DNA from: an uncultured Candidatus Bathyarchaeia archaeon
GTDB lineage: Archaea; Thermoproteota; Bathyarchaeia; Bathyarchaeales; Bathycorpusculaceae
Length of the DNA stretch: 64,000 bases
Assembly: GCA_964501075.1 (NCBI GenBank)
Contig: CAZCRE010000001.1
Span: 10,778-74,777 of the forward strand
Direction of reading: 5' to 3'
Part shown: positions 9,207 to 56,625 of the stretch, one piece after another
Layout: every line of letters begins with the position of its first letter
How positions within the stretch are numbered: the first letter of the stretch is position 1
Made by a program: the position numbers and the translations under genes
The notes under the pieces: model-generated
What the model saw: the letters and a program-made list of their open reading frames with translations, nothing else
What the model was told of the DNA's origin: nothing
Databases searched by the model: none

Positions 9207-9405
9207 ATATAGATCAGAACCTTTCCCTTTCCCTTCTTGAGCTTCTGAAGTACTGTGAATGCTGTTATACCAAAATCATAGCAATTCATGCCTTTTTCTT
9301 CATTTGATGCTCAATTATAGGTTTTTCCATGGTTATCCTTGACCGTAACACCTATAACTTGTGAACTGTAGATTTGTGAACACCATCCCGAAATAGGTTG
9401 CACTA

Positions 9406-9840: not shown

Positions 9841-10048
9841 AGCGTGAATGGAGACTTGGCTGGTCAACCTGTTACTTGAACCAATGATCTTGTAGATCGA
9901 GTGGGGCATCTTTTACGTTGTCGTAATGCCCTATTAATTATGAATATCTAACAACGAAAATCGGAAAAGAGGATACACCAGAACTACAGAACGTAGATGT
10001 GAACGAAGCCTTGCAGGAACATGAGCATAGAAGGAAGAAGTGGTGGCG

Positions 10049-10819
10049 CTAAGCTGCTTCACCCTCACTTTTCCTTAACAGTTTCTCCATTTCCTTCTTG
10101 ACGCTGTATTTAAATGGAATCTTGAGCATGTCTCTCTCTAGATAACCGCTCTCATACAGCTTCTTCATTAGCCTGGCAGTGTGCTCCCGGCTAAGCTTCA
10201 CTCTGTCCTTAATCTCTGGTGCTGTCTTTGAGCCTTCAGTGGCCAGCATTTCGAGAACTGCCAACTCCGTTTCGGTTAATGGCGCTAGCGCTCTATCCCT
10301 CTTGATTGAGATCACCGCGTCAATATTCGCCTCAGGACTAACTGGAATTTGTTGAGCGTGTTCTTCGACGTTTGCCATCTTTGTAGTCAAAGTCACTTGT
10401 GACTTGATCACATCACTGACTTGTTTAGTGAGTTCGTCGATCCTTGTAGAGATCTTGTCTCGATCTTCCGAAACGGAAGCTATTGCAGTTTCCATTGACG
10501 GCATGGCTTTTTGTGTCTCATCTGATTTCCTTATGGCCACTTCACTCTTGGCGCTAAGGGCTTCCAGTTTGAAGGCCACATGTTCCAGCTTTTCACTCTC
10601 AATCCCTAGCTGTCTATTGAAGCTCAATACGATGTCTTCCACTGATGCCCGTGCTTGCTTGTATTCCTTCCTCGCGCGCTGAAGCATGACGTAGCAACCA
10701 GCTGCCATGATTCCAGCCGTAGCGAGTAGGATTACCGAGAGACCCGTCGCAACCTCCGTTCTTCCTATCCTCCCTGTGACATATATGTGATTACATGTGA
10801 GTTGAACATGTTGCGTCAC
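10049..10819 (-). CDS. membrane-anchored coiled-coil protein with C-terminal MarR/wHTH-like domain
   Basis: One TM segment (LSVILLATAGIMAAGCYVML), a long heptad-like region, then LTETELAVLEMLATEGSKTAPEIKDRVKLSREHTARLMKKLYESGYLER. The start codon is uncertain because the 5' end overlaps palindromic DNA motifs. Confidence 0.55.
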   Translation of the reverse strand: MTQHVQLTCNHIYVTGRIGRTEVATGLSVILLATAGIMAAGCYVMLQRARKEYKQARASVEDIVLSFNRQLGIESEKLEHVAFKLEALSAKSEVAIRKSDETQKAMPSMETAIASVSEDRDKISTRIDELTKQVSDVIKSQVTLTTKMANVEEHAQQIPVSPEANIDAVISIKRDRALAPLTETELAVLEMLATEGSKTAPEIKDRVKLSREHTARLMKKLYESGYLERDMLKIPFKYSVKKEMEKLLRKSEGEAA

Positions 10820-11035
10820 ATATCACATGTCGTCATGAATGATTTAACGTTTATGGTCTTTTTGATGAGTGTTCCTATGACGTCACAGGTCGCATCCAAA
10901 GAATATGCGGCTTCCTGGGAACTCTGCTTGTCCTGATCCCCATGAAACGTGGCCTTTTCTATGGTTTGAGACCGGACTCTTGAACTTTGCCTCCAAGGAT
11001 TTGAACTGTAGCTCAGGTTGGAGTGACTTGTGACG

Positions 11036-11530
11036 TCACATTATTCCCTTTGATGGGTTGGCGAGCTGTTTCAGGCTTGTTTCCAGTTCTTCCCTAATGG
11101 TTTCTATGACTTTGAGATGGTCACCAAGTTCTGTACCTTTGTTTGGAAGTTGTTTGTAAGCTGCTATACACTCATGCAGTTTGTTTGCTACCTCCAAGTA
11201 TGGATCAAGGCTTGTGTCTTCAAAGACGCCTAAGTAGCCCAAGAGTAGTACTGTGTAGATGGATTTAACAACATTTTCTTTTGCCTGCCTTAATGTCCTG
11301 TTAAACGCGCCGCGGCTTATTCGCGCCTTCGTTAGTCTCAATCTGGCCTTTTCATCATATTTTAACTGTTTGCCCGAGATATTCTCGGACAAAACGTCTA
11401 TTAGCATTGTTTCGAGTTGCACTTTAGTCAAGTGACTATTTTTCGCCAGTATTTGCACAATGGGGTCGTCTAGTGAACCCTTTAACCATGTTTGGACGTT
11501 CTCTTTGAGCTTCATACTCTCACACGACAA
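11036..11530 (-). CDS. hypothetical protein (164 aa)
   Basis: Clean ORF, helical-looking, no family recognised. Confidence 0.45.
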   Translation of the reverse strand: MSCESMKLKENVQTWLKGSLDDPIVQILAKNSHLTKVQLETMLIDVLSENISGKQLKYDEKARLRLTKARISRGAFNRTLRQAKENVVKSIYTVLLLGYLGVFEDTSLDPYLEVANKLHECIAAYKQLPNKGTELGDHLKVIETIREELETSLKQLANPSKGIM

Positions 11531-11640
11531 GGTAATGTGAATGGATACAGTTTTGTATACTGGGTAGGCTTATAAGTCTGATTCTGACCGCTTGAGATTA
11601 CGTGCTTGATCAACAAAAGCCATTTATGTGAACTGAAACT

Positions 11641-12831
11641 ATGCTTAGTGAGGAAATCAACTTGAATCCGCGCTTCAAACCAGTGGAACGCTTGAAACAA
11701 ATCAAATCCTCAGGAATACGCCGCTTTTTCTCTTTGGCCAGTGAAGTGCCTGGCAATATTAATTTAAGCGTCGGAGAACCTGATTTTTGTCCGCCCAAAC
11801 GGAGCCTAGAGGCTGGCTGGAAGGCTGCGGAAGAAGGAAAGACCCATTATGCACCGACCAATGGTATCCCTGAGCTTCGAGAAGCACTTGCTGAAAAGGC
11901 CTTGAACGACTATGACCTTGCCTATGACCCTGACTCCGAGATTCTTGTAACCGCTGGAGGCACTGAAGCCATTTTCTTGGCGTTATTCGGGCTGGTGAAT
12001 CATGCAGACGAAGTACTAATCCCAAACCCCGGGTTCGTTATTTATGAGCCTAATGTCAGGCTAGCTGGTGGTACTCCAATTTCTATTCCGTTGCTTGAGA
12101 AGAACGACTTCAAAATATCTGCTGAGGACGTGATGTCACTCGTCACAAGGAAATCACGTGCAATCGTCTTGAACTACCCGAATAATCCTACGGGGGCAGT
12201 CCTTTCTTACGACGAGATTGCTGCTTTAGCCGAGATTGCGGTTGAACGTGATCTAATTGTGATTTCTGATGAAGTTTACGAAAGAATAGTTTATGATGAT
12301 GCTAAACACTATTGCATTGCCGCTTTCCCGGGTATGCGCGAACGCACTCTGGTCGTCGGTTCTTTTTCCAAAACCTATGCTATGACTGGACTAAGGATTG
12401 GATATGTTTATGGGCCTAAAGAGCTTGTGTCTAACCTCTGGCTCGTTCATCAATATACTGTTGCCTGTGTGAACAGTCTCTCACAGTATGTTGCTCTCGA
12501 TGCACTGAAGGCGCCGCAAGGATTTGTCAAGGACATGGTGAAGGAGTTTGACAAGCGGCGACACTTGGTTCACAATAGGCTCAATGCGATCAGCGGATTT
12601 CATTGCGCACTTCCAAAAGGCGCTTTCTATGCTTTTCCCAACATCAAAGACTTTGATTTGACTTCAGAGGAGTTTGCCGAGCTCTTGGCGAGAAGAGCAC
12701 GCGTGATAACTGTGCCTGGGTCCTCTTTTGGCAGCTATGGTGAGGGCCACATTAGGATATCTTACGCTGCCGCTTATGAACAGTTAGAAGTGGCCTTAGA
12801 CCGAATAGAAAACACTGCCAGGGCTCTTTAA
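11641..12831 (+). CDS. class I/II PLP-dependent aminotransferase (aspartate aminotransferase-like)
   Basis: 396 aa. NYPNNPTG motif and the PLP-lysine context SFSKTYAMTGLRIGY. Confidence 0.85.
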   Translation: MLSEEINLNPRFKPVERLKQIKSSGIRRFFSLASEVPGNINLSVGEPDFCPPKRSLEAGWKAAEEGKTHYAPTNGIPELREALAEKALNDYDLAYDPDSEILVTAGGTEAIFLALFGLVNHADEVLIPNPGFVIYEPNVRLAGGTPISIPLLEKNDFKISAEDVMSLVTRKSRAIVLNYPNNPTGAVLSYDEIAALAEIAVERDLIVISDEVYERIVYDDAKHYCIAAFPGMRERTLVVGSFSKTYAMTGLRIGYVYGPKELVSNLWLVHQYTVACVNSLSQYVALDALKAPQGFVKDMVKEFDKRRHLVHNRLNAISGFHCALPKGAFYAFPNIKDFDLTSEEFAELLARRARVITVPGSSFGSYGEGHIRISYAAAYEQLEVALDRIENTARAL

Positions 12832-12840
12832 TAGGTTCGA

Positions 12841-13680
12841 TTACAGCTTCTCTGCGCTCTTCCTCAATTCCTCGAATAGTTCAGGCCGCAAATCCTTCAA
12901 GGTTGGAACGAAAGTCTCAACTGATCTAATGTCGGCATAATCGATCTCACAAGTTACGAAGTCTTCCTCGTCATACTTTGCTTTAACGATAACCTCGCCC
13001 TGCGGCCCGATTAGTCTGCTGCCTCCCCAGAACTGCAGGCCATCCTCTATACCGACAAGGTTCACATACGCCAGAAAAGCTGTGTTTTCGATGGCTCTTG
13101 CAGATGTTAATGTTTCGAAGAATGATCGCCTAATTCCCGGCGAGGCAGAGATGCAGATGATTAACTGTGATCCTTCTAATCTTGTTAGGCGACTGATCTC
13201 TGGGAAGAAAATATCGTAACATATGATTAACCCTATTTTCCCAAGTTCTGTGCTAAAAGCTGCTGCTTGATATCCTGGACGAAAATACCTCTTCTCTTCG
13301 AAGACGCTATGAGTTGGCAAGTGCATTTTGCGATACTTCCCGATGAAACCATTTGGACCTGTTAGAACCGCTGAATTATATATGGTGGCTTGAGTTTTCT
13401 CGCTTAACTCTGGCATGCCAAAAACGATGTGCATTTTCGTCTTTCGCGCCAAGTTCTCTATAATATTTGTTGAAGGGCCAGGTATCGTTTCAGCAAGCTC
13501 GTAGATCTGGTCTCTGACAACGTAGCCGGTTAGAGAAAGCTCCGGAAAAATGACGAGATCCGATGATAGCTTTTTTGCCTTCACTACTGATTCCTCGATT
13601 CTTTTCAGGTTTACCTCTTTTGCTCCTTGCGCACAACTGATCTGGGCAAGAGTCACTCTGATTTTTTGCTTCATATTCAT
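12841..13680 (-). CDS. carbon-nitrogen hydrolase (nitrilase superfamily), probable glutaminase partner of NadE
   Basis: Glu-Lys-Cys triad contexts FPELSLTGY, YRKMHLP and GLIICYD. Its ATG overlaps the nadE stop (ATGA at 13677-13680). Confidence 0.8.
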   Translation of the reverse strand: MNMKQKIRVTLAQISCAQGAKEVNLKRIEESVVKAKKLSSDLVIFPELSLTGYVVRDQIYELAETIPGPSTNIIENLARKTKMHIVFGMPELSEKTQATIYNSAVLTGPNGFIGKYRKMHLPTHSVFEEKRYFRPGYQAAAFSTELGKIGLIICYDIFFPEISRLTRLEGSQLIICISASPGIRRSFFETLTSARAIENTAFLAYVNLVGIEDGLQFWGGSRLIGPQGEVIVKAKYDEEDFVTCEIDYADIRSVETFVPTLKDLRPELFEELRKSAEKL

Positions 13681-14513
13681 CCCCTTCTAAGCCTAAAATC
13701 TGCACCTACAGTTCTGTATGCTAGCTTGGTTGTTAACAACATCCTTCTCTTATGCTCAGCGGATAACCACTTGAGCTTTATCCTATTCACAAATTCTTCT
13801 TCCAGTACTAATTGCTCAGCGATCTCCTTCACAGTCATGAAATGTTCTAACCCATATAGGACTAAATCAAGAGTCTCATATTTGATGCCAAGTTCTCTTT
13901 CTGCTGTTTGGCCTGGCCACAGAGATGGTGATGGCGGTTTCATTATGATCTCTTCTGGAACACCGGTGTGTTTGGCAAGTTTTCGGACTTGTGTTTTGTA
14001 TAGATCCATGATTGGATAGATGTCAGCTGCAACATCGCCCCATTTTGTGAAATATCCCATCATCGTTTCCGACTTGTCTGAGCTCCCACAAACAAGTAAG
14101 TTTAACTTATTTGCGTAATAGTAAATGTAAATCATACGTGTTCGTGCTTTTATGTTACCTTTAGAGACCTTTTCTGAGATCTCAAAAACTGGTATCGCTC
14201 CATAGAATGCCTCCAGAATAGGTGTGATGTCACATAACTGTGATTTCAGTTTGAATTTTGCTATTATTGCTTGAGCATGTTTGATGTCCTCTTCATGGTA
14301 TGTTTCCCTTTCCGGCAACATAAGACCTAGGACTCTTCTACCGCCTATGGCTTTGGCTGAAAGCGCTGCAACGGTGCAGCTGTCAATTCCTCCGGACAAT
14401 CCGAGAACTACACCCTCGGAACTGGTTTTCTCAAAGTACTCCTTAATGAAACGCGTTATTTGTGTTTCAACATTCCGTAGATCCATGTCTAGAACTGAAG
14501 ACGTTAGCTCCAA
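13677..14513 (-). CDS. nadE: NAD+ synthetase (single-domain NadE)
   Basis: PP-loop motif GLSGGIDS; NadE-like length (278 aa) and layout. Confidence 0.88.
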   Translation of the reverse strand: MELTSSVLDMDLRNVETQITRFIKEYFEKTSSEGVVLGLSGGIDSCTVAALSAKAIGGRRVLGLMLPERETYHEEDIKHAQAIIAKFKLKSQLCDITPILEAFYGAIPVFEISEKVSKGNIKARTRMIYIYYYANKLNLLVCGSSDKSETMMGYFTKWGDVAADIYPIMDLYKTQVRKLAKHTGVPEEIIMKPPSPSLWPGQTAERELGIKYETLDLVLYGLEHFMTVKEIAEQLVLEEEFVNRIKLKWLSAEHKRRMLLTTKLAYRTVGADFRLRRG

Positions 14514-14613
14514 GCTAGTACCTCTTCAGGTTTATGATTTTGAGTCGAGTATTTAAGGACAAACATAAAATACTGGGTTGCCGTTGCCACTGTGGTATAG
14601 AAGGATTTGAAGA

Positions 14614-14880
14614 ATGGGACGAAGGAGAAGGAAAGTTGTTCGAGTTCCCAAGAAGCACTTACCCAAGCTCTTCTCTTGTCCTAAATGTGGCAAGGAGACA
14701 ATCCGTGTTGAAATCGTTCGTGATGAAAACCGTGCTGTGGTAGGGTGTGGCAGTTGTGGCGTTAGAGACGAGTTTCCTGTCAAGCCTGCTCAAGGCGAGA
14801 TTGACGTGTATTGTATGTTTACTGATAAGTTCTATGGTAAACCTAGGACCCCTTCCGCATCCGACATCACAGGTGCGTAG
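14614..14880 (+). CDS. elf1: transcription elongation factor Elf1 homologue (zinc ribbon)
   Basis: [14 protein letters not shown] basic N-terminus, FSCPKCG...VGCGSCG zinc ribbon and an EIDVY motif. Confidence 0.8.
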
Positions 14881-14885
14881 CTAGG

Positions 14886-15647
14886 ATGCCTTCTGCAATC
14901 GGGCCTGTCGAAAAACTTCTCCTCGAGAAGATTGAATCAGAGGGTTCCATTCACATAACTCTTATTGACCCTGAGAAAGTAACGCCTCCTCAAGGATCAG
15001 GAATCGCGAGAAAGGCGAAGGCCAGCGGCACAACAGCTATTATGATTGGTGGTTCAACATTTGTTTCAGCAGCGCATCTTGATGACATTGTCAGAATCGT
15101 CAGGCGCACTGTCAGAATTCCGATAATACTATTTCCGAACAATGTGACTGGCATAAGTCGCCACGCTGATGCTATCTGGTTCATGTCTCTACTAAACTCA
15201 GTTGACCCTTACTTTCTGATGGGTGCTCAAGTTCTAGGAGCACCGCTGGTCAAGAAATACCGCTTGGAACCACTTCCACTCGGTTACATTATTGTTGGAG
15301 AGGGTGGCACTGCTGGCGTCGTCGGCAAAGCCATTCCAGTTCCATACAACAAACCTGAACTTGCCGCGGCCCATGCGCTGGCTGGGCAGTACCTAGGCAT
15401 GCGTTTCATATACTTGGAAGCTGGGTCAGGTGCAAAGGAACCAGTTCCTCCTGACATGATTAGAATTGTCAAGCACTACATCGATATCCCTCTGATTGTT
15501 GGAGGAGGAATACGCTCCAGAGGTCAAGCCCTTGCTGCAGCATCCGCTGGTGCGGACATAATAGTGACTGGTAACGTTGCAGAGAACACTGGAGTGAGGC
15601 GTAGAGTTTCTGAAATAATCGAGGGGTTAAGACACCATAGAACATGA
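14886..15647 (+). CDS. geranylgeranylglyceryl phosphate synthase (PcrB/GGGPS family)
   Basis: IDPEK, MIGGS, YLEAGSGA and LIVGGGIR motifs; 253 aa. Confidence 0.85.
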   Translation: MPSAIGPVEKLLLEKIESEGSIHITLIDPEKVTPPQGSGIARKAKASGTTAIMIGGSTFVSAAHLDDIVRIVRRTVRIPIILFPNNVTGISRHADAIWFMSLLNSVDPYFLMGAQVLGAPLVKKYRLEPLPLGYIIVGEGGTAGVVGKAIPVPYNKPELAAAHALAGQYLGMRFIYLEAGSGAKEPVPPDMIRIVKHYIDIPLIVGGGIRSRGQALAAASAGADIIVTGNVAENTGVRRRVSEIIEGLRHHRT

Positions 15648-15929
15648 GATGTATTTGTAATACCTTGAAACGCCAGTTGCTAAAGGCCAGCCAAAAAGAG
15701 TGTTGATCTTAGGGAACTCGATTATGCTTTGACAGATTGAAATGCACATTTTTCACCGTTGAACACCATATGCCTGCACTATGGGTGTCTGCGTAGCACA
15801 AATGATAACGCTACTTTCATGTTTAATCTACATGAATTTACATTTCTGTTTGAACGGCCTTTTTTATCGATTTGTGTCAGAAAACAGTGATAAGCAGTGA
15901 TAAGCAGTCATACTTGCGGGTAGCTTCAA

Positions 15930-46412: not shown

Positions 46413-46994
46413 ATGAACTCAAAATCAACCGAACAAAAAACTGGCCAGCTAGTGCTACCGGGTGAACGATTGGGCGTGATTGAAGAATTCACGCCTGACA
46501 CGGGTACTTTCGTAAAAGATGGAGTAATCTACGCCATGGTTGTTGGTCGCGCGCTTCGAGACCTTGCAAGCCGCCGCGTCTCAGTTTATCCTGTTGTTCA
46601 CGAAATCAGAGTTCCGAAAGTCGGAAGCACAGTGGTTGGACAAGTTTCAAACGTTCAATCGGAAAATGCAGCCGTACGCATATTTCAGATCGGTGGCAAG
46701 TTGCTTTCAGGAGTGTTTACAGGTGTACTTCACATTTCCGATGTCCATCTGCGATATGTTGACTCGATGTTCAGCGTTTGCAAGGCAGGTGATATAATAC
46801 GCGCCAAGGTTATTAGCTTAATGAATCAAGTTTATCACTTATCTACTAAGGATAAGGATTTAGGCGTGATCTATGCGTTCTGTTCGCATTGTGGGGGCAG
46901 TTTGGTTTCAAAAAGGCAGGGCATGTCCTGTCCTCGGTGCGGGAATATTGAGGAAAGAAAAATAGTTTTTGATTATGGGAAAGAACTGGTTTAG
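46413..46994 (+). CDS. csl4: exosome complex RNA-binding subunit Csl4
   Basis: VLPGERLGVIEEF N-terminus, an S1-like core (GVLHISDV) and a C-terminal zinc ribbon CSHCGG...CPRCG. Confidence 0.85.
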   Translation: MNSKSTEQKTGQLVLPGERLGVIEEFTPDTGTFVKDGVIYAMVVGRALRDLASRRVSVYPVVHEIRVPKVGSTVVGQVSNVQSENAAVRIFQIGGKLLSGVFTGVLHISDVHLRYVDSMFSVCKAGDIIRAKVISLMNQVYHLSTKDKDLGVIYAFCSHCGGSLVSKRQGMSCPRCGNIEERKIVFDYGKELV

Positions 46995-47012
46995 CACAAA
47001 TGGGGGATTTAG

Positions 47013-47297
47013 GTGAAAGCACGAGTGTTGAAGAGAACGCCGAATGAGCTTAAACTTGAAATCGAAGGTGTAGGACACACTCTGTGTAATCTGTTACAGA
47101 AGAAATTTTCGGAAGAGGAAAACGTGGAAATGGCCGGCTACGACGTTCCACACCCAATGACTTCAAAGGCTATAGTTTATGTTCGCGCAAAAGGAAACGC
47201 AAAACCAGAGGAAATCCTGAAGCATGCTGTCGCAAGAACCCGCGAATTGAACAAGGAATTTGGAAAAGAACTCAAAAAAGCCCTCAAGAAAGCGTGA
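47013..47297 (+). CDS. rpoL: DNA-directed RNA polymerase subunit L (Rpo11)
   Basis: LKLEIEGVGHTLCNLLQKKF...AGYDVPHPM. GTG start; conserved position after csl4. Confidence 0.85.
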   Translation: MKARVLKRTPNELKLEIEGVGHTLCNLLQKKFSEEENVEMAGYDVPHPMTSKAIVYVRAKGNAKPEEILKHAVARTRELNKEFGKELKKALKKA

Positions 47298-47712
47298 TTC
47301 TGCTCTTTATTCGTTCAAGCAACTGCCTTAAGCCTTCAACTGGGTCTTCACTTCTCATAAGCATTCTCACGCTTTCGTCCAGCGTAACACACTCATTCAG
47401 CCACGAATAAACCAGCAGCGCTTCGGCTGCATCAGCTAGATCATGGCAGCTCATACTAGACGAAACATGTTCTCTCAACCCTGCTCTTCTAAGCGCCTCA
47501 GCAAGTATGCTGCCTTTGACCTTGACTCCTATAGGTTTCTTATTTTTTTGTGATAACGTTAACGAATAAACGAAGTTTATGTACGTGTCTCCGAGAGATG
47601 CGAGTTTATGGTCTTCTAGCACTTCGGTCAGGCTTTTGTATGGTACTAGGAAAGAACTAGCGTTTATGGTCTTCTTCAATGGTGGACGCCTCTGCTTTGC
47701 TGTCTTATTCAC
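47284..47712 (-). CDS. RNase III-like domain protein (mini-RNase III-like)
   Basis: EDHKLASLGDTYINFVY and HDLADAAEALLVYSWL resemble the two RNase III signature helices; 142 aa. Confidence 0.45.
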   Translation of the reverse strand: MNKTAKQRRPPLKKTINASSFLVPYKSLTEVLEDHKLASLGDTYINFVYSLTLSQKNKKPIGVKVKGSILAEALRRAGLREHVSSSMSCHDLADAAEALLVYSWLNECVTLDESVRMLMRSEDPVEGLRQLLERIKSRITLS

Positions 47713-47722
47713 ATACTAGCTG

Positions 47723-48367
47723 TTAAAACTTGGGAATAAAACGCCCAGTTCTTCTTTGATATTCTCTGTATTCGTCGCCGAAACGTTGCTCCAAGAGTTT
47801 CTCTTCTTGGACAGTAACTTTGATGTACCCTGGAATGGCGGCTAATGGTATGAGCGTGACTATGTTTGGCCATAGGGTTATGAATCCAAGGAACATTAGG
47901 AAGTAGCCGAAATAGGACGGATGACGCACATAGCGGTATGGTCCCCAAGTGACAAGCCTATGGTTACCTCGCATTTCCCACGAAGTCGCGTATCTCCCGC
48001 GAGCAATCACGCTCCAGATGAACAGAGAATAGCCCATACCTGTCATTGCTAGACCCAGAACCTGCACGTAGATTAAGAAGGGAAGCTGAATGCTTAATGG
48101 CAAAACTTCTGGCGAAGAGACAATGTTGCTCAACATGACAAAAACATAGAAACAGACTTCAACGAAGTACAGTAGCGTTCCAAGAGCAGCTATGCTCACA
48201 ATGAAACCGGAAGGGTCTTCAACCTCTGCGTATGGTTCCTCTTGGCCATTGTGTCTATGCGCTTTCAGAATGTTGAGCAAGTTTACTGAAAAGAAGCACC
48301 CCAAGCAGATTGTGAGAAAACTGGTGATCAAGACTTCAAGAGGCATGATGTCAACTGGTTCGTGCAT
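47723..48367 (-). CDS. isoprenylcysteine carboxyl/phospholipid methyltransferase-family membrane protein
   Basis: Multi-TM protein with LVTWGPYRYVRHPSYFGYFLMFLG, the ICMT/PEMT signature. Confidence 0.75.
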   Translation of the reverse strand: MHEPVDIMPLEVLITSFLTICLGCFFSVNLLNILKAHRHNGQEEPYAEVEDPSGFIVSIAALGTLLYFVEVCFYVFVMLSNIVSSPEVLPLSIQLPFLIYVQVLGLAMTGMGYSLFIWSVIARGRYATSWEMRGNHRLVTWGPYRYVRHPSYFGYFLMFLGFITLWPNIVTLIPLAAIPGYIKVTVQEEKLLEQRFGDEYREYQRRTGRFIPKF

Positions 48368-48391
48368 CCATTTATAAGTCTATAGAAGCCC

Positions 48392-49015
48392 ATGTTCAGT
48401 GAAGACTTTGAGGGTTCTTACTTGTCCTGCAAAAGGTTTCGCGTAATAAAGCCCGAAATTCGGGTTTTAGGAGTTGATGATGGATTCTTCATTCCTCATT
48501 CAAGGAGTTTTGCGCCTATCGTCGGCGTTGTTTTCCGTGGCGGATACTGGCTTGACGGTGTGATGCACACAAGAGTAGAAGTGGACGGACTAGATGCCAC
48601 GGACAAGATAGCTTCTATGATTATTAACTCACCCCACAACAAGCAGCTGAGAGTCATAATGCTCAACGGCGTGACTTTTGCGGGCTTCAATGTCGTTGAC
48701 ATTAGAGACCTCAATTTGAAAACAAAACTTCCTGTCATAGCCGTGGTACGTGAAAAGCCCGACTTTTCAGAAATCTACAGCGCGCTGAAAAACCTGCCGA
48801 AAAGCGAAGAGCGGTGGGAGGTCATCAAAGGCACTGGGAAACCGTTCATGGTAAATACGCGAAGTAGGCGTGCTAAAGTCTATGTGCAAGCTTGCGGCAT
48901 CTTCGAGGACGATGCGCGGAAAATCGTGAAGGCGACTTCTACTCGAAGCGACATTCCCGAACCGTTACGTGTGGCACACTTGATTGCGTCTGGAGTGAGC
49001 ACCGAGGCTGTTTAG
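48392..49015 (+). CDS. UPF0215/DUF99 family protein
   Basis: RVLGVDDGFF...VGVVFRGGYWLDGV...VDGLDAT...IMLNGVTFAGFNVVD pattern. Confidence 0.7.
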   Translation: MFSEDFEGSYLSCKRFRVIKPEIRVLGVDDGFFIPHSRSFAPIVGVVFRGGYWLDGVMHTRVEVDGLDATDKIASMIINSPHNKQLRVIMLNGVTFAGFNVVDIRDLNLKTKLPVIAVVREKPDFSEIYSALKNLPKSEERWEVIKGTGKPFMVNTRSRRAKVYVQACGIFEDDARKIVKATSTRSDIPEPLRVAHLIASGVSTEAV

Positions 49016-49094
49016 CTTTGGCCTTTATGTCAACAAGAAAAGGTTTAAAAGACACTATGCCAAGGAAAAACAAACGACAACGGAGCAATAACTT

Positions 49095-49445
49095 ATGGAA
49101 TTTTGTCCAAAATGTGGTTCTCGTCTTGTACCCAAGAAAGCGAAAAACGGCAAAGATGCGACATTAGTCATGATCTGCCCGAAATGTGGCTACAAGAAGA
49201 AAGCAGCGGACAAGATTGAGCCGAAACCAATCAAAGCCGTCCAGACTAACCCACGGCAACTCGTTGCAGTAATCAGCAAAGAGGAGCAAAAGCTGAGAAC
49301 ACTGCCCACCGTAAGGATCGAGTGCCCCAAATGCGGCAACAACGTGGCCTATGTTTGGCAAGTGCAGACGAGAGGCGCCGATGAGTCTTCGACGCAGTTC
49401 TTGCGATGCACGAAGTGCAGCTACACATTCAGAGAATACTCATAG
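49095..49445 (+). CDS. tfs: transcription factor S (TFS; RNAP subunit M-like cleavage factor)
   Basis: N-terminal ribbon CPKCGS...CPKCG. C-terminal ribbon CPKCGN...QVQTRGADESSTQFLRCTKCS with the acidic DE hairpin. Its last 14 codons plus stop coincide with attL. Confidence 0.9.
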   Translation: MEFCPKCGSRLVPKKAKNGKDATLVMICPKCGYKKKAADKIEPKPIKAVQTNPRQLVAVISKEEQKLRTLPTVRIECPKCGNNVAYVWQVQTRGADESSTQFLRCTKCSYTFREYS

Positions 49446-49446
49446 A
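49403..49446 (+). repeat. attL (left direct repeat)
   Basis: gcgatgcacGaagtgcagctacacattcagagaaTactcataga; overlaps the tfs C-terminus and stop. Confidence 0.8.
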
Positions 49447-50337
49447 CTTTCAGATTTTGCTAAAGGAAATATTCTCAAGCTAGCTTTTGAGCTTAGAAAC
49501 AGGGGCTACTCTGAGTCTTACTTGAAGACTTTGATTACTGCTTTGAATCATGTCGCTTCGAGAGTCGACGTTGAAGACACTTCAGCAGTCTTAGAACTCG
49601 TGGCAAAAGCGAAATGGAGAGACAGCTACAAAGCTAACTTGTGCGATTTCTACAGTCACTACTGCAAGTTCTACAACATCGCTTTCTCTAAGCCGAGGTA
49701 CAGAAAAGATCACAAAATTCCGAGGGTGCCGAGTGAAGAGAAGATTAATCTGATAATTGGGCACGCATCGAAGAAATACGCGATAATCTACAAAATCGCT
49801 ATGGAATGCGGGCTAAGACCGGTTGAGATTGGCGATTTGACTCTGAACGACATAGATTTGGTCAAAGGAATAATCTCAGTCTGCTCTGCGAAGCATGGCA
49901 ATCCGAGGGTTCTGAAGTTGAAAGACGAGACTCATGCTATGCTGAAGAAGTACGTCGGCGAGCACAAGTTCGGCTTGAATGACAGACTGTTTCCGTCGGG
50001 GGCTGTTATCAGCAACACGTATGAGAGACTGAAAGCTTCGCTGTCTAAGAAGCTTTGCGATTCTGAGCTGAAGAAGATTCGACTCTACGACTTGCGACAC
50101 TACTATGCAACGATGCTCTACTACAAGACTAAAGACATACTTCTAGTGAAAGAAAAGCTCGGACACAGAAACATCAATAACACTCTGATTTACACGCATC
50201 TCGTAAACTTCAATGAGAATGAAGAGTTCTACAGCGCGACAGCAAAAGCAGTTGACGAAGCAGCGAAGCTCATAGAGCAGGGCTTTGACTTCGTGTGCGA
50301 CTTGGACGGAGTGAAGCTGTTCAGGAAGCGGAAGTAG
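49403..50337 (+). CDS. int: tyrosine recombinase, C-terminal catalytic fragment Int(C) of a split integrase
   Basis: Catalytic-type motifs GLRPVEI (Arg), LYDLRHYYAT (HxxR) and LGHRNINNTLIYTH (His...Tyr). The reading frame is open through attL into tfs with no credible start of its own. The track ORF start at 49351 lies inside tfs. Confidence 0.8.
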
Positions 50338-50770
50338 ATACTCAATTCCCTTTTTTCTCTGTTTACATAACGTAAGCTTAGTAGACTGCACTTAATCTCT
50401 ACAAACGCCCGCTGAAGGGTATTTTTGTCTTATTAGGGATTGATTGGCGAAACAGAGCTTTGAACGTATGAGCTGGGGCTACAGTTGGGTTTTCCCTGCA
50501 TTCGTCAGGTTTTGGAAGAGTCTAATCGAAAAGTATGGTTTCAAACAAGCCTTGTTCTTATGGAGCAAATTGCTTTGTAGTCCATTTGTCGTCACTCGCC
50601 AAGTGAGGTTGACTAGGTTCTTGCCTGAGTATGAGCATATGAATACAAAGAGTCTGCCTTGGGGTGCACTGTTTCGCACTTCTTTTGAATAATATGTGCG
50701 TGCACCTGACTGAAGCTGTTGGTAACATTCATTAGCCAAACTAAGTTATTATCCACTGAGGTGCGTTTGT

Positions 50771-52150
50771 GTGAAACCAATAGTTGTAAATGAGAGACCT
50801 AAAGATCATGATCCTGAGGACTGCCGAGTTCCAGGGTGCGAAAGATGTAAACTGGATGTACCTTTTAAGCTGCCATCGCAAATTGTCAAGGCACATAAGA
50901 ATGGCGATCTCGTTATTTTTGCAGGTGCCGGCGTGAGCACGGAAAGTGAAGGGATTTTTCCACACGATTTTTATGAAGAAATCAGAAGAGAAGTGAAAAT
51001 CCCAGGAGAAAAAAAGGTCAGTTTTCCGGATTTGATGAGCCTCTATTGCTCAGCGCCGCGAAGTCGCAAAGACCTTTTGCTTCTCATAAAGAAGCGAATC
51101 GATGAAGTCAAAGCCTATCCTGAATTATATAACTTTGCAGCGGAATTTCATCGAGAAATTGCAACCGTTCCTCACTTAAATGAGATATTTACGACCAATT
51201 GGGATGATTTTTTTGAAAGAGAGTGTGATGCGACACCGGTGGTAACGAGTCAGGATTTCGCAGTCGTTCAAGACACCCCAGGAAGGAAGGTCTTTAAGCT
51301 ACATGGTTCGATTTACAACTATGGTTCGATAGTAGCCACAAAAAAAGACTATGAAAAGTGCTACAGAAGACTTTCCACTAGCATAATTGGCGCTAATCTC
51401 AAAATTCTTCTGATGTCCAAGACTCTGGTCTTCGTTGGTTTTTCCTTTGACGATGAAGACTTTCTCAGGCTTTATCGCCTTCTGAAGAAGGAAGTTGGGG
51501 GTATGCTTCCACAGTGTTACGTTGTGACCTTGGACAAGAAGGCAAAAAGAAAGCTTGAAGAACTCGATATCGAGGCAATCCCGATTCTGACTGGAGCTAC
51601 TTACTTCGTTAAGAACCTCAAGAAGAGACTAGTTCAAGAAGGTACCATGTTGCCTGATTCACAATTTCTAGGCATTCCAGAGATGCTTAAAGTTCTTTTT
51701 TCGGAAAGCGAGAAGATTCAAAAGTTGAGTTTGAAAGAACACCCAGATCTACTTTATACGGTAGCATATGAGAACGGATTCATGCATGCTCTTAATCGAA
51801 TAGCTATGACTAGAAACTCGGGCGAATACGGTTGTGGTCCACATATATTTGCTATGATTAAGTCGTTTGACCCCTCAATTAAGACAGCCTTGCGGAAAAA
51901 GCATTACGTTCAAGCTGCTTTACTCACTGGATTTCAGGCGGGTCTTGTGTTTTACCTCTCAAGTCCTGAAGATCGAAAGAAAGTACCACTATACTATATG
52001 CATGGCTGCAAGGAAGAGATTATGAATGTCGAGCAATGCATAAAGCTTGAAAAAAAAGCAGCGTCCTCAAATAAACTGGCGCATGACCAAGCCAAAAAAG
52101 AGGTCAGAGGGATTCCTAAAGGCATTTTTATTCATTATCCACCGTTTTAA
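50771..52150 (+). CDS. SIR2-like (SIR2_2) domain protein with unrecognised ~170-aa C-terminal domain; candidate NADase defence effector
   Basis: DLVIFAGAGVS (GAGxS NAD loop), IFTTNWDDFFE (TTNxD, catalytic Asn) and VFKLHGSI (catalytic His). GTG start with GAGGTG 8 nt upstream. Confidence 0.75.
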   Translation: MKPIVVNERPKDHDPEDCRVPGCERCKLDVPFKLPSQIVKAHKNGDLVIFAGAGVSTESEGIFPHDFYEEIRREVKIPGEKKVSFPDLMSLYCSAPRSRKDLLLLIKKRIDEVKAYPELYNFAAEFHREIATVPHLNEIFTTNWDDFFERECDATPVVTSQDFAVVQDTPGRKVFKLHGSIYNYGSIVATKKDYEKCYRRLSTSIIGANLKILLMSKTLVFVGFSFDDEDFLRLYRLLKKEVGGMLPQCYVVTLDKKAKRKLEELDIEAIPILTGATYFVKNLKKRLVQEGTMLPDSQFLGIPEMLKVLFSESEKIQKLSLKEHPDLLYTVAYENGFMHALNRIAMTRNSGEYGCGPHIFAMIKSFDPSIKTALRKKHYVQAALLTGFQAGLVFYLSSPEDRKKVPLYYMHGCKEEIMNVEQCIKLEKKAASSNKLAHDQAKKEVRGIPKGIFIHYPPF

Positions 52151-52586
52151 TTTAATAGAGATAGAACTCTTAACGGAGAACGTGCGGTTCTCGTTCCGGA
52201 AAACGGTCTCGCTCGCATCGTTGGGAGTTTTGCGAGAGCAAAGTGTCTCTACAGCGCGGGCTAGCATATCACTCTGCAAACCTGAAAAACGCTGCTGCGG
52301 AAAAATCTTTCAGGCAGAATCATTCGATGGATTTGGCTTAAGCTGTTGAAAACCAAAACAGGGATTTTCCCCTATACTGTACTGTATATGGGGTTTTCAC
52401 TGTTTTGAAATGCTCTTAGAGAGTTGCTGACTGCGCTTTCAAAAATCTTCGAGGATAAGACTTTACCCCAAAACCCAAACACAAACACACAAAAAGCAAC
52501 TTGTGTGGTTCAATTGAGTTTCAATCTTTACAGGGTATTCATAATCCTTATCGCGCTAGCAGAGATCAAATAGTAGTCTGGTTGGT

Positions 52587-53069
52587 ATGTATCGCCGTCG
52601 AAGAAGTGCGCCTCTCAAATTCGAAAAAGCCTATGAAATGCGACACAATCCGACACCAGCAGAGGCGCGCATGTGGGAAATCATAAAGGGTCAAATGATA
52701 CCTAATTTTCCAAATCATATCTTCTACCGACAGTCCGTGCAATTTGGCTACATATTGGACTTTTACTGTCCAACATTGCGACTAGGCATAGAAGTAGACG
52801 GTGCCATACATAACGAAAGAAAATGGTATGATTGGCAAAAAGACACCAATCTAGCACGTAGGCAAATACAAATGTACCGATTTAGCAATGTGGATGTCTT
52901 CAACAACCCGCAGGGTGTCGCCACTCGACTCTTTCAAATCATACAAGACAAAACGATGCCTTGGTATGCAACGAGTCATGCATCAGCGCTTCCCAATCAG
53001 AAAGACTGCAAAATGATACAAGAGAAATCGACGCCTTGGTATAAGAAAATCTTCAGATTCCTAGTGTAA
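52587..53069 (+). CDS. DUF559 (Vsr/restriction-endonuclease-fold) domain protein
   Basis: NPTPAEARMWEII...FYRQSVQFGYILDFYCPTLRLGIEVDGAIHN...D..L.......RFSN matches the DUF559 layout (D...E-x-D/K core). Confidence 0.7.
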   Translation: MYRRRRSAPLKFEKAYEMRHNPTPAEARMWEIIKGQMIPNFPNHIFYRQSVQFGYILDFYCPTLRLGIEVDGAIHNERKWYDWQKDTNLARRQIQMYRFSNVDVFNNPQGVATRLFQIIQDKTMPWYATSHASALPNQKDCKMIQEKSTPWYKKIFRFLV

Positions 53070-53247
53070 TGCGCGCAATTCTTGGAATCCACGTTTGCTT
53101 TTCGTCTCTCAGATACTTAGCGCGCGCTATCAATATCTCTGAAAGCTGAGGCGCGGTCAAACTAACGCAAGGATCAAGTTTGGTTTACAAGAGAGGCTAA
53201 AACACGGTCAGCGCGCGCAGAACGCTGTTCACAATCGAAGATGGGAG

Positions 53248-55281
53248 TTATGGAGGGAGAGGGTTAGTCACGGAGTTCGCTGAGTCACTTTTAGCACGCC
53301 TTTTCCTTAGCGCGCGCCACCTGAAGATCACAGCTAGGGAAATGACTACGGCCGACACGACTACGCCCAATAAGTAGTAAATAGAGAAGCTAGGTGCAAA
53401 GACGCTAGGCATAACCGTAAATGTTAGGGTTTCGCTTTCGCACATGTTCCGCGCATAATCATTCGGTATGATCGCCGCCACTTTCCATACGCCATCCTCA
53501 AAAAGCGTAGGCGTGTCACTGAACCCCCCCATTCCATCTGTCGTCACGATTCTCGTAAACGTCTCACCGTCTGGTTTCTGATAATTCAGCGTCACCTCCA
53601 AGCCCGGAAATGCCGTCAGATTCCCTTCTACCCTTATGTGAGCAACTCCGTTGACCGTAACGTTTGAACCTGATGCCGTCTCGTTTTTTGGCAGCGAGAT
53701 TGTGACCTGCGTGTCGTACTTGTTGATGGGCGGAAGCACCTCTATCTTTCTGCGAAAGCCAGGGATGCCCTCTCCAGAAACTTCCACGTAGTATACACCT
53801 GTCTTGGCAGACGGATAGACTTCTATCCGATTGTTGACATAGCTTGAACCGCCGATCACAAAGACGGCTCCGCAACCATAATGCATAAACTTTGGGCATA
53901 CCACGACATGATAATCATACATCATCGACACGCTGCCATACACTTTGATCTTCGCTTCCTCGCCGATCCTTATCGGATAGCCACCAACAATGAGTGTTTC
54001 CATGCTCTCAGCTTCCCAATGATCCACATCACCAAGCCACGCCGCCTTCATCGTCCAATTTCCGGCTGCATCCGGCGCGAAATTGTCAACGTAGGTACCG
54101 TTGGCAGATGTCTCAACAGACTTGCTAGTGACAGTGCCGTCGGGCTTGGTATAGGTTAGTGTGATGTCTGCCCCAGCGACAGGCGGATCTAGGGAGATCG
54201 AAACCGACAGCGTCTCCCCTGGAATGATCTGCCAGTCCCCTTTGTCGAGAGTTAGACGAAGGGCTACTGACTTCAGTATCTCAAGGAAGCGTATGCAGCC
54301 GTCGCTTCCCCCAGTACATGCAAATTTACCATCCGCAGAAATGGCCACGTCCTTAAACCGAACATCTCCATCACCGGAGGAATATGCGGAGTACTGCGTG
54401 CCATCCCCATTAAGAAATACTAGTCCGTAGAACTGCGTCAACGCTATGCGGTTTTGGCTCACTGAAATCGAGTCAGGTCTAGGAATGTTCTCCTTGCTCC
54501 AGCTCACTCTTCCGTTCCCATCAAGACAAAGAAGAGAAGTCGGACCGTAAAGTGCCGCCACCAGATAATCGCCATTGGGCGAGACACCAATCATTTTTTC
54601 TTCGCCCATAATGAAGAAGCTCATGTTTAGTTTGTAGCTCCACAACACCATCCCCCTATCGTCAAGGAAGTAAATCTCATCATTGGTGCAAGCTGCTATG
54701 CGTTCACCACTAGAAGATACAGAGACTTGGTACACGCTTGCGTTTAGCTCTTGCTTCCAAATTCTGTCACCAGTGATATTGAAAAGCGCGACGCTTTGGC
54801 CGTCACCTGCGATTATGTACCTGCCGTCTGATGAAATCTCTATATCACCGTACGCAGGGCTATCAAGCAAACGCTTTTTCCACAGTATTTGCCCTTCCCT
54901 ATTAAAGAGGGAAACATTACAATCGTCTTTTTCAAGTATGGCGACCGAGCTGGCATCACCGGAAATCGAAATCGATATATCACCCTGAAGAGCTGAGTAA
55001 GACTTATTCCACAAAAGATTCCCCCCCTCTCCTAAGAGAAGGATATCTGCATCGAAAAGACCACGATATACCAAAGCCGCTACATAGCTGCCATCCGCCG
55101 AAAAACAAACACGCTCAACCTCTGCACCCGTAGGGTACTTCCAGAAAACCGAAACAGATGCCTCAACTGCGACGGTCGCCAACAAACACAACAAGACTGC
55201 AACCGCGAATAGTCGAATATGGGCCTTCCTCCATCCGCGTGTGCCCAAGAAGACTATCCATAAGGTTTCTATCGAAGCCAC
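53248..55281 (-). CDS. cell-surface protein: N-terminal signal/TM, PQQ/WD-like beta-propeller, Ig-like repeats, C-terminal TM anchor
   Basis: Repeats of the S(A/S)DG.Y(I/V)..., ...LW.(K/Y) type, many N-x-S/T sequons, and a terminal VVSAVVISLAVIF plus basic tail RWRALRKRRAK. Confidence 0.7.
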   Translation of the reverse strand: MASIETLWIVFLGTRGWRKAHIRLFAVAVLLCLLATVAVEASVSVFWKYPTGAEVERVCFSADGSYVAALVYRGLFDADILLLGEGGNLLWNKSYSALQGDISISISGDASSVAILEKDDCNVSLFNREGQILWKKRLLDSPAYGDIEISSDGRYIIAGDGQSVALFNITGDRIWKQELNASVYQVSVSSSGERIAACTNDEIYFLDDRGMVLWSYKLNMSFFIMGEEKMIGVSPNGDYLVAALYGPTSLLCLDGNGRVSWSKENIPRPDSISVSQNRIALTQFYGLVFLNGDGTQYSAYSSGDGDVRFKDVAISADGKFACTGGSDGCIRFLEILKSVALRLTLDKGDWQIIPGETLSVSISLDPPVAGADITLTYTKPDGTVTSKSVETSANGTYVDNFAPDAAGNWTMKAAWLGDVDHWEAESMETLIVGGYPIRIGEEAKIKVYGSVSMMYDYHVVVCPKFMHYGCGAVFVIGGSSYVNNRIEVYPSAKTGVYYVEVSGEGIPGFRRKIEVLPPINKYDTQVTISLPKNETASGSNVTVNGVAHIRVEGNLTAFPGLEVTLNYQKPDGETFTRIVTTDGMGGFSDTPTLFEDGVWKVAAIIPNDYARNMCESETLTFTVMPSVFAPSFSIYYLLGVVVSAVVISLAVIFRWRALRKRRAKSDSANSVTNPLPP

Positions 55282-55422
55282 CCCTTAAGAAAGCGAGGCA
55301 TTCCTTTCCCTAATCTATATTGGTTGCACCAATAGATATCATTTTTGGAAGACTCTTTTAAAACAATTAGCATGGAGCATAAGCTCATAGAGAGAAACTT
55401 TTTTAAGCCCAGAATGTGCATA

Positions 55423-55428
55423 TTTATA
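55423..55428 (+). promoter_or_regulatory. TATA-box candidate for the split integrase gene
   Basis: tttata lies about 20 nt upstream of the Int(N) ATG at 55446, consistent with a short-leader or leaderless archaeal transcript. Confidence 0.35.
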
Positions 55429-55445
55429 CCAAAAGAGGAATAGAA

Positions 55446-55547
55446 ATGGCTGAAAATGAAAAAGAGGCTAGAAATTTTGGCGATGCACTAAGTGCAGCTA
55501 CACATTCAGAGAACACTCATAGAATTCATGTTCAAAAATACGCATAG
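55446..55547 (+). CDS. int: Int(N): N-terminal fragment of the split integrase
   Basis: ATG at 55446 gives MAENEKEARNFGDALSAATHSENTHR, then runs out of attR into flanking DNA and stops at 55547. The residues SAATHSENTHR are shared with the frame entering Int(C) at attL. Confidence 0.7.
   Translation: MAENEKEARNFGDALSAATHSENTHRIHVQKYA
55480..55523 (+). repeat. attR (right direct repeat)
   Basis: gcgatgcacTaagtgcagctacacattcagagaaCactcataga. In the tfs frame it still reads CTKCSYTFREHS-stop. Confidence 0.8.
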
Positions 55548-55629
55548 ATGATTCTATTACTTTTTTGATAATTGGTTGGGACTCAAATATGGCTGCTGGC
55601 CTCCAACCAGCAAGCTATAAAAGTGTTAG

Positions 55630-56199
55630 TTAGGCCATTCTTTCTTGTCCGATGTGCTCTCTGTGAGACTGTTTCTTCTTTGGGATCGTTATCTTGAGTA
55701 CTCCGTTTTTGCATTCAGACGTCATAGAATTCGTGTCTAGGTTGCTCTTTGGCAGTTCTATGATCTTGTAGAAGTTCTTGGCTTTCACCTCAAGACCGTC
55801 TTCTCTGAAGTGCAATTGTATGTCTTCCTTTTCCTCTCCAGGCAATTCAACATAGATTTTTGTGGCGTCTTCTTCGTTGAAGATATCTGTTAATGGTTCC
55901 CGTATGTCTTTTGCTTCATTCTTTGAGAGTTCAAAAGGATTCTCGGGCAATGGTCTTCGTCTTGGTGGTTTCAACGGTTCAATCGGTTCTAGCGATTCGT
56001 TGAAGCCAAAGCGGCCTTGTATGATGAAGCCTTTTGCTTGTGGCTCATTGATTTCTCTGGTTTCCCAGGCGCCTTTGATTTTCCCGCTTGTTATTTCTCT
56101 GAACATCTCGTCTATTTCTTTCTGAAATCGTTTCATGAGTCTTCTGTTCAATGTGTCCAAGTCTTCAAACATATCGTCAAAATCATCACTAAATGCCAA
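55630..56199 (-). CDS. Hsp20/alpha-crystallin family small heat-shock protein
   Basis: KIYVELPGEEKEDIQL...GLEVKA...NGVLKITIPKK alpha-crystallin pattern. Confidence 0.75.
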   Translation of the reverse strand: MAFSDDFDDMFEDLDTLNRRLMKRFQKEIDEMFREITSGKIKGAWETREINEPQAKGFIIQGRFGFNESLEPIEPLKPPRRRPLPENPFELSKNEAKDIREPLTDIFNEEDATKIYVELPGEEKEDIQLHFREDGLEVKAKNFYKIIELPKSNLDTNSMTSECKNGVLKITIPKKKQSHREHIGQERMA

Positions 56200-56205
56200 C
56201 GTGCT

Positions 56206-56625
56206 TCACCTCCTGTCGTCCTCGATCTCTTGAACAGACTCCATCAAACGGTGCAATGCTAGGCTCATCATCATGAATGCCGTCCGCCCAAAATCTGAAC
56301 AGCTATACTTTCCTCGGCTCGTCTTTTCCAGAAGTCCGCCTTCTTCGAGTTTCCGTGAGTTCTCCCAGACAATCTTCGGGTTCAAATCCAGTTCTTTCAT
56401 GAAGCCTGTAAAACTGATTGTCTGGCTTTCCTCTTCGATCAATTGCTTCATCATTCTCAAGCGTGTTTCATGTGACAGAGCGTCAAAGATCTTTGAGAAC
56501 TTATCGAAGTCTTCTTCAGCTGCCTTGAACTCGTTTTCCAGATCCTCTTTCGGCCAATCTACTGGAGAAAGGGGCACCTCAAACACTGTTTTTCCATCTT
56601 GCATGAGCTTCAGTCTTAACTTCAT
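56206..56625 (-). CDS. ArsR-like winged-helix regulator, co-transcribed with hsp20
   Basis: FDALSHETRLRMMKQL...FMKELDLNPKIVWENSRKLEEGGLLEK is an ArsR-type wHTH. There is a 6-nt gap to the hsp20 start. Confidence 0.65.
   Translation of the reverse strand: MKLRLKLMQDGKTVFEVPLSPVDWPKEDLENEFKAAEEDFDKFSKIFDALSHETRLRMMKQLIEEESQTISFTGFMKELDLNPKIVWENSRKLEEGGLLEKTSRGKYSCSDFGRTAFMMMSLALHRLMESVQEIEDDRR

Follow-up and report, generated by a model that had tools for sequence, protein, structure and literature searches.

Direct repeats behind the gene for transcription factor S

In a 64-kb stretch of a Bathyarchaeia contig (CAZCRE010000001.1; this whole stretch is called the window), the gene for transcription factor S (tfs) is followed by a segment of 6.1 kb that is bounded by two direct repeats and that starts with the larger part of a tyrosine recombinase gene (Table 1). 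The open reading frame (ORF) at 49095-49445 scored 83 bits against the archaeal TFS model TIGR01384 (TFS_arch, curated cut-off 64.75) and matched the Pfam family Zn_ribbon_TFIIS with 1e-18. The left repeat is the 3′ end of this gene, as had been suggested in an earlier reading of the letters alone (the original prediction), and the score above the cut-off confirmed the identity of the gene.

The repeats at 49403-49446 and 55480-55523 are identical in 42 of 44 nucleotides (nt), start 6077 bp apart and differ by G/T at 49412/55489 and by T/C at 49437/55514, exactly where the mismatches had been placed. Weaker similarity widens the repeated region to 49398-49449 and 55475-55526 (47/52). The chance expectation for such a pair in 64 kb is about 6e-14, and no third copy was found in the window, even when up to 10 mismatches were allowed. 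When the right repeat is fused to the body of tfs, it reads ...CTKCSYTFREHS-stop, and could be confirmed as an alternative tfs terminus.

The locus has attachment (att) repeats, an adjacent tyrosine recombinase with its catalytic residues and, in relatives, an empty site, as is expected of an integrative element. It is concluded with high confidence that the 6077 bp between the repeats are a small integrative mobile element, which entered a Bathyarchaeia genome by site-specific recombination at the 3′ end of tfs. The original prediction of an integrated element at this position was essentially right but incomplete, as it had missed that the attachment site of the element (attP) lies inside the integrase ORF and that the gene is split by integration.

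An integrase gene in two parts

The part of the integrase gene behind tfs, int(C), contains the whole core-binding and catalytic region and the conserved C-terminal tail. Its frame stays open through attL back to 49351, in an alternative frame inside tfs. At the other end of the element, a frame opened by an ATG at 55446 reads MAENEKEARNFG and then crosses attR in the same phase. When this right-end part, int(N) (55446-55523), was joined to 49447-50337, an uninterrupted ORF of 322 amino acids (aa) was obtained (26 + 296 codons). Because attP lies within the integrase ORF, integration splits the gene.

An ATG and ∼12 codons before the att copy are kept at the right end of the window element and of three other, independent elements (L090, L010 and L049), with the conserved pattern M-[A/T]-E...K-E...G-[D/A]-A. 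Also kept in all four is a CTTTTAAGCC/TATA-like segment upstream of this ATG. The similarity between the window and the element in L090 resumes at window position 55392, and the segment from there to 55445 is a candidate int promoter.

In the family alignment, homology begins at residue ∼30, which is the first helix of the core-binding domain, and no in-frame start codon is present between att and this helix. Because of this, the integrase gene must start upstream of att, and a start of translation downstream of att, which would leave the gene unsplit, appears unlikely. The ratio of non-synonymous to synonymous substitutions (dN/dS) of int(C) between different integrated copies was 0.10-0.13; these copies have therefore evolved as functional genes. 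As every conserved position from residue ∼30 onward is present, int(C) could be active if translated. The alternative frame of tfs was open in 87 of 89 tfs genes, occupied or not. An ATG within tfs was considered as a start for int(C) and rejected, as GAT:GAC at the invariant Asp-Glu codons (GAT-GAR) was 6:6 in occupied genes versus 39:38 in the others, without enrichment.

An unsplit relative was found on a contig of 4669 bp (L086, MEGAHIT k141). Its integrase, which is 58% identical to that of the window, is one intact ORF that spans attP at codons ∼18-32, and this attP agrees with the att of the window in 39 of 44 positions. The contig has a terminal direct overlap of 141 bp (1-141/4529-4669), and its head-to-tail junction is most simply read as a circle of 4.5 kb. 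The overlap ends exactly at the 3′ boundary of att, as expected from a branch between attP-type and attR-type sequences in the assembly graph of one sample, which hints at the coexistence of free (or tandem) and integrated forms in that sample.

The arrangement suggests the following course of integration. In the free form, int would start at the ATG that is now at 55446, cross attP (codons 13-26) and continue into 49447-50337. Recombination of attP with the near-identical last 44 bp of tfs (attB) would then part the int promoter and the first 26 codons, at the right end, from the other 296 codons at the left end, and int(C) would end up directly behind tfs, out of frame. Since the element brings a synonymous tfs terminus, the TFS protein is unchanged by integration. 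The att would be read in two frames, in one as the second CxxC knuckle of the TFS zinc ribbon and in the other as an N-terminal peptide of the integrase that is dictated by the target and would precede the first conserved helix of the enzyme. With the entire enzyme retained in int(C), the split may be a promoter/start-codon switch for directionality and not a true 'suicide'.

Empty sites and independent assemblies

Relatives of the TFS protein placed the window in Bathyarchaeia, with the metagenome-assembled genome (MAG) MFD04408.bin.2.185 (L006) as the closest species representative (TFS 94% identical). A scan for the att sequence identified a metagenome contig with an empty site (L091), in which both flanks are 95-96% identical to the window. 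Here, tfs ...CTCATAGA runs straight into ATTCATGTTC..., i.e. into the sequence that starts at 55524 in the window. The break coincides exactly with the end of the 44-bp repeat, and the absent segment is the stretch between the repeats. The expectation that a related strain should have tfs directly joined to 55524 onward was thus borne out. By exact-protein look-up of TFS, two further loci with an identical protein were found (L001 and L002), in which hsp20 follows 80 bp after tfs with nothing between them.

The 25 nt at 55524-55548, between attR and the resumption of homology to L001, also occur in L091 and L006 and are absent in L001. Their occurrence in an empty site (L091) and in L006 marks them as ordinary chromosomal sequence. 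The idea of a degenerate third att copy at this position, left by an older integration, was rejected, as its alignment score of 12 was within the range of shuffled sequences (mean 9.7, maximum 15).

Both junctions were also found in contigs from short-read assemblies of other samples, with 99.6-100% identity to the window. A Logan contig (L100, ERR3804374) spans attR (window 53034-55717, 99.9% identity) and reaches into hsp20, another (L004, ERR12814473) spans attL (window 46980-49457), and a third (L092) covers the interior of the element (window 49428-52734). As independent assemblies reproduce both junctions, the structure is not an artefact of one assembly. Contig breaks near attL were considered as a sign of mixed occupied and empty populations, and this was not adopted, as the breaks (49442, 49444 and 49457) are off the att boundary.

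The exact att pattern was also used to look for attP or attB: among JGI metagenome contigs it matched only the occupied L090 and the empty L091, and IMG/VR gave no match. An exact-protein look-up of Hsp20 for right junctions of the same strain gave no match either. A cryptic tRNA gene as the target was excluded, as ARAGORN found no tRNA in the window or at the tfs loci. Elsewhere in the window, at 1970-2094 (minus strand), Rfam identified a tRNA of 125 nt (46 bits), probably intron-containing, where ARAGORN had found none.

The recombination site

The attL of both comparable lysogens (window and L090) has G at repeat position 10 and ends with TAGA, whereas attR and the empty sites have T at position 10, and the attR of L090 ends with TAAA, like the empty-site proxy L001. 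These polymorphisms in two lysogens (window and L090) versus two empty sites fit the original proposal that the element supplies a new tfs end and that attR keeps the chromosomal one. These two polymorphic positions would fit a strand exchange around 49403-49411, near the end of the repeat that is proximal to tfs, and the last 35 nt of tfs in the lysogen would then be mostly element-borne.

A dyad within att (Table 1) is a perfect palindrome of 13 bp, TGCACTAAGTGCA, in attR (55484-55496) and in the empty sites (attB), and is a candidate for the core recombinase-binding site. When the last 150 nt of tfs were compared among 78 species, no 43-nt window was more conserved than att (majority-base frequency 0.874 vs 0.823). 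This high conservation parallels the usual rationale for tRNA genes as targets.

Catalytic signature of the integrase

Alignment to XerA (5hxy) and within the family identified the catalytic residues as R150, K175, Y240-x-x-R243, H266 and Y275. XerA was also the best match among solved structures (5hxy, 2e-13), and the SSV1 integrase chain was not matched among them at E<=1. The integrase of the window and one member each of the tfs clade (P0024) and the tRNA clade (P0088) matched only PF00589, even at E<=10; PF16795 (Phage_integr_3) gave no match in the three proteins at this threshold. Alignment of the box RLYDLRH with HVLRH of XerA gives the signature R...YxxR...Y and not KxxR. This signature has been assigned to the non-splitting pNOB8 type in a review (PMC8371274 section 8). 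Since int(N) has only 26 codons, 14 of which are dictated by att, every conserved position falls in int(C). Judged from its sequence, the integrase has the gene layout of the SSV type, yet is without two defining sequence features of the SSV family, PF16795 and KxxR.

After the catalytic tyrosine, the integrase has a strongly conserved extension of ∼40 residues (residues 280-322; window 50284-50337 region) with the consensus ...YSATAK.V.EA.KLIE.GF.YV...KLFRKRK. Such an extension lies outside the usual fold of tyrosine recombinases. In four tRNA-clade proteins (P0095, P0104, P0116 and P0117; columns ∼180-186 of alignment A2), GVMP is found where the others have GLRP, and the catalytic arginine of box I is apparently absent.

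Distribution of the family and a possible change of target

Database searches returned 670 homologues of the integrase at E<=1e-10. In those with ∼50% identity or more, the complete N-termini read ...SSC.A.SA.THSENTHK, which is the end of tfs in the alternative frame; at least 27 homologues have such N-termini. As these N-termini translate the tfs end, the proteins come from tfs-integrated copies. Homologues with 41-49% identity have N-termini such as GFESHPPHH, AGSNPxPS and similar, and in the two that were checked the ORF overlaps tRNA-Leu(tag) (L095) and tRNA-Ala(ggc) (L099). A neighbour-joining tree built from 105 catalytic regions placed the 27 tfs-labelled sequences together in one clade that was free of tRNA-labelled ones, and all 18 tRNA-labelled sequences were outside of it. 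The element had originally been described as belonging to no recognizable named family; it is not a one-off and belongs to a large family found across Bathyarchaeia. As far as can be told, this family is undescribed in the literature.

A survey of 80 Bathyarchaeia species representatives found integrase homologues or fragments directly next to tfs in L006, L007, L009, L010, L049 and L056. The int of L007 is frameshifted, and L009, L010, L049 and L056 have only int fragments adjoining tfs. Repeats of the tfs end were identified in L010, L049 and L071. In L006, two elements are arranged in tandem at tfs (10312-15900) with a middle att copy at 12758-12801. The first has an integrase 71% identical to that of the window and a methyltransferase-like cargo, and the integrase of the second is 91% identical. 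In the middle int(N), the ATG is gone and 2 nt are deleted, and there is no third att copy before hsp20. The occupied site of L090 carries a sister element of ∼11.7 kb, which shares with the window element only int(C) (∼92% nt identity) and the last ∼130 bp; its cargo includes Mrr, a DUF3987 protein that resembles a primase/helicase, and a surface protein of the NosD/beta-helix type.

A tfs gene with an 88%-identical integrase at its end was also observed at L087 9742-10987 (and in L088 and L089). The protein encoded by this tfs is 82% identical, and the neighbourhood differs, with ParB_N, PIN, an IS240-family transposase and many hypothetical genes upstream and with no endo-dU and no PCNA. 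This may be another lineage or a tfs copy borne on another mobile element.

Taking target, signature and gene layout together, we lean slightly towards the following view: these XerA-like integrases (PF00589, YxxR) form a self-splitting family that represents a second, independent origin of the architecture, a single monophyletic subclade within it switched from tRNA genes to the zinc-knuckle-coding 3′ end of tfs, and the split perhaps acts as a switch.

Cargo of the element and flanking genes

Besides the tyrosine recombinase, the element encodes a SIR2_2 protein, a DUF559 protein and a membrane-anchored beta-propeller/immunoglobulin (Ig) protein, so that its contents are as originally described (Table 1).

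Table 1. Features of the element and of its target in the window.
Feature	Position	Strand	Remarks
tfs (transcription factor S), 116 aa	49095-49445	+	last 14 codons and stop inside attL
attL, left 44-bp direct repeat	49403-49446	+	tfs frame ...RCTKCSYTFREYS-stop; integrase frame DARSAATHSENTHR
Dyad TGCAC-N3-GTGCA	49407-49419	.	from codons TGC-ACN-AAG-TGC of the CTKC zinc knuckle
int(C), integrase codons 27-322 and stop	49447-50337	+	tyrosine recombinase, Pfam PF00589 5e-20
Hypothetical 82-aa ORF between int and the SIR2 gene	50444-50692	+	no Pfam/PADLOC match; gene called in Logan contig L093
Stand-alone SIR2_2 protein, 459 aa	50771-52150	+	Pfam SIR2_2 8e-22; PADLOC ThsA SIR2 region 9e-23
DUF559 protein (Vsr-like endonuclease fold), 160 aa	52587-53069	+	Pfam DUF559 7.5e-19; NCBIfam PRK09767 3.6e-9, below cut-off
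Secreted or membrane-anchored surface protein, 677 aa	53248-55281	-	Pfam PQQ_2 3e-8, weaker propeller and Ig matches
Right-end non-coding segment, candidate promoter	55392-55445	+	CTTTT(T)AAGCC and ATATTTATA motifs, GAGG before ATG
int(N), ATG and 25 codons (MAENEKEARNFGDALSAATHSENTHR)	55446-55523	+	last 14 codons = attR
attR, right 44-bp direct repeat	55480-55523	+	
Chromosomal flank, native tfs downstream region with T6 run	55524-55629	.	contiguous with tfs in empty site L091
hsp20	55630-56199	-	next gene after the chromosomal flank

The SIR2 protein belongs to a family of 572 stand-alone homologues from bacteria and archaea, in which the invariant residues include N143, D145 and H178 of the NAD site. 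Its AF2 model (pLDDT 90.6) had ThsA, KomC/HAM-SIR2 and DSR2 as best folds in the PDB, over the SIR2 domain only. With ThsA, DSR2 and KomC it shares the SIR2 fold and the matching catalytic N, D and H residues; unlike these, it has no SLOG domain, no ThsB/TIR, no C-terminus of DSR2 length and no KomA/B, and with ∼460 aa it has a helical C-terminal domain of its own. As regards Thoeris, the PADLOC match covers the SIR2 region only, and no TIR or SLOG protein is found in the element. Based on homology, the SIR2 cargo is probably a defence-associated type of NADase. The family also has an invariant N-terminal CxxC pair (C23 and C26). The C-terminal domain (residues ∼296-445) is all-helical and well predicted, and Pfam matched SIR2_2 only.

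The 677-aa protein has a hydrophobic segment at its N-terminus and a transmembrane anchor at its C-terminus, and it contains a beta-propeller (PQQ_2) and Ig-like domains. In L090, a different surface protein (NosD/beta-helix, 905 aa) is found in the same position and orientation.

Among the 80 species representatives, the usual gene order is endo-dU, tfs, PCNA, PriL, and in most Bathyarchaeia PCNA directly follows tfs. A pair of hsp20 and a 139-aa helix-turn-helix (HTH) gene (window 55630-56625, minus strand) was observed between tfs and PCNA only in the clade of the window (window, L001, L002, L006, L090 and L091). An att remnant that would point to an older integration as the source of this pair was not found. 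In L091 (1534-1952), the homologue of the 139-aa HTH protein aligned in two pieces that overlap, pointing to a frameshift or an error in the assembly.

Alternative explanations

Several observations weigh against the view of an active element with a self-splitting integrase. The attP junction or circle of the window element was not found among JGI metagenome or IMG/VR contigs, the terminal overlap of L086 could instead stem from a tandem integrated dimer, and the two polymorphic positions behind the placement of the crossover could be ordinary strain variation. Replication, conjugation and capsid genes were not detected in the element (Pfam, PHROGs, PADLOC), and it may be a dead end. Neither ThsB, HerA nor another defence partner was detected in it (Pfam, PADLOC), and genes of this SIR2 family do not have DUF559 as a conserved neighbour, so that a role of the cargo in defence is suggested by homology only.

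The absence of a free form and of replication or transfer genes would also be expected if the segment were a fixed, decaying remnant of an integration, a genomic island unable to excise whose ORFs look intact simply because they are young. Many relatives at the tfs site are clearly decayed (L007, L009, L010, L049 and L056, and L006 with its lost ATG and attR), and we regard this explanation as a serious possibility, though somewhat on the improbable side. In the window, however, both int halves are intact and in frame with the ATG kept, the att copies still agree in 42 of 44 positions and every cargo ORF is open; in addition, int is under purifying selection and a related strain has an empty site. 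Given that it showed no genes for replication, conjugation or a capsid, the window element probably represents a non-autonomous or reduced form within its family. The lack of virion genes bears as well on the idea that the element is a provirus, the genome of a small archaeal virus. It encodes a large surface protein, and a head-tailed virus contig (L105) carries at its end an integrase of 35% identity that has the C-terminal tail as well. As no capsid, packaging or other virion gene was found in the window element, L090 or L086 (Pfam, PHROGs), and no close relative was found in IMG/VR by the att pattern scan or the integrase search, a provirus is very unlikely. The virus contig itself (IMGVR_UViG_3300032069_000851, 1-10960) encodes terminase, portal and an HK97-like capsid protein, and its integrase has the tail ...LFRKRK and HxxR instead of YxxR. 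Least probable, to the point of being negligible, is an assembly or binning artefact in which a foreign contig was stitched into the MAG at the shared 44-mer. Contigs of other samples do end at or near attL (L003 at 49442, L005 at 49444 and L004 at 49457) and L092 starts at 49428, but contigs of independent samples cross attR into hsp20 (L100) and attL into the element (L004), L090 and L006 share the architecture in other assemblies, and the longest exact match between the repeat copies is 24 nt, below typical assembly k-mers. An integrative element at tfs with a split integrase gene remains the preferred reading.

Relation to known elements

With its integrase and att and with no viral, conjugative or transposon hallmark genes, the element is a cryptic integrated element (sensu Krupovic 2019). 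It resembles the elements with SSV-type or 'suicidal' (type I) integrases of SSV1, pTN3 and pT26-2 in that attP lies in the int ORF and the gene is split into int(N) and int(C) (She 2002; PMC7253208; PMC8371274). The att of ∼44 bp, the compact module of integrase, att and promoter with variable cargo, the tandem arrays and hybrid junctions, and the target specificity that varies between related enzymes are also shared; suicidal integrases and target switching have been described for Thermococcales (PMC7253208). In contrast to the SSV type, the enzyme of the window is PF00589/XerA-like with YxxR and has neither PF16795 nor KxxR, int(N) has 26 codons without a conserved domain while int(C) is the complete enzyme, the target is a protein gene and not a tRNA gene, and the host belongs to Bathyarchaeia and not to Sulfolobales or Thermococcales. 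The pNOB8-type (type II) integrases share the signature R...YxxR...Y, but their genes stay intact on integration, whereas that of the window is split. A 2021 review attributes the self-splitting integrase to a single event within the PF16795 superfamily (PMC8371274).

Thaumarchaeal elements (PMC6563490) are similar in being small and integrase-only, without viral or conjugative hallmarks, in integrating at the 3′ end of a conserved protein gene whose ORF end is restored by the element, and in the tandem reuse of sites. In that study, 14 of 68 elements integrate in the 3′-distal region of a protein gene, NitEve-E2 lies in a gene for a Zn-finger protein and restores its stop codon, and NitEve-E3 has a split SSV1-like integrase (PMC6563490). 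The thaumarchaeal att are mostly short (down to 8-13 bp), however, tfs is not among the listed targets, and a split integrase and a protein-gene target are not combined there. Because 14 of 68 thaumarchaeal elements use protein genes, the original statement that a protein-coding attB is unusual was overstated; such sites are uncommon in archaea but documented (PMC6563490; PMC8371274). A full-text search of the literature for tfs as an attachment site gave nothing relevant, and papers on Bathyarchaeia viruses and MAGs mention integrases in passing only. What is new here is the combination of a self-splitting integrase of a different tyrosine-recombinase lineage, a recurrent protein-gene target and poorly explored hosts.

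Bathyarchaeia are abundant archaea of sediments, and their mobile elements are barely charted. The tfs locus gives a defined module (integrase, 44-bp att and promoter), a defined target, and empty, occupied, tandem and head-to-tail, probably circular, forms. It indicates that self-splitting of integrases is not confined to the lineage of SSV, pTN3 and pT26-2. The N-terminal peptide of the integrase is apparently free to be whatever the target dictates, translations of the tRNA T-arm in one case and the alternative frame of tfs in the other, and the evolution of target switching can be compared directly between sister clades. A review names further protein-gene targets and asks whether dyad symmetry is present in them (PMC8371274 section 19); for tfs this is answered, as the CxxC codons form a palindrome of 13 bp. 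The module could serve as a tool for site-specific integration in Bathyarchaeia-like hosts, and its variable cargo (SIR2, DUF559 and Mrr) marks tfs as a place to seek archaeal defence genes.

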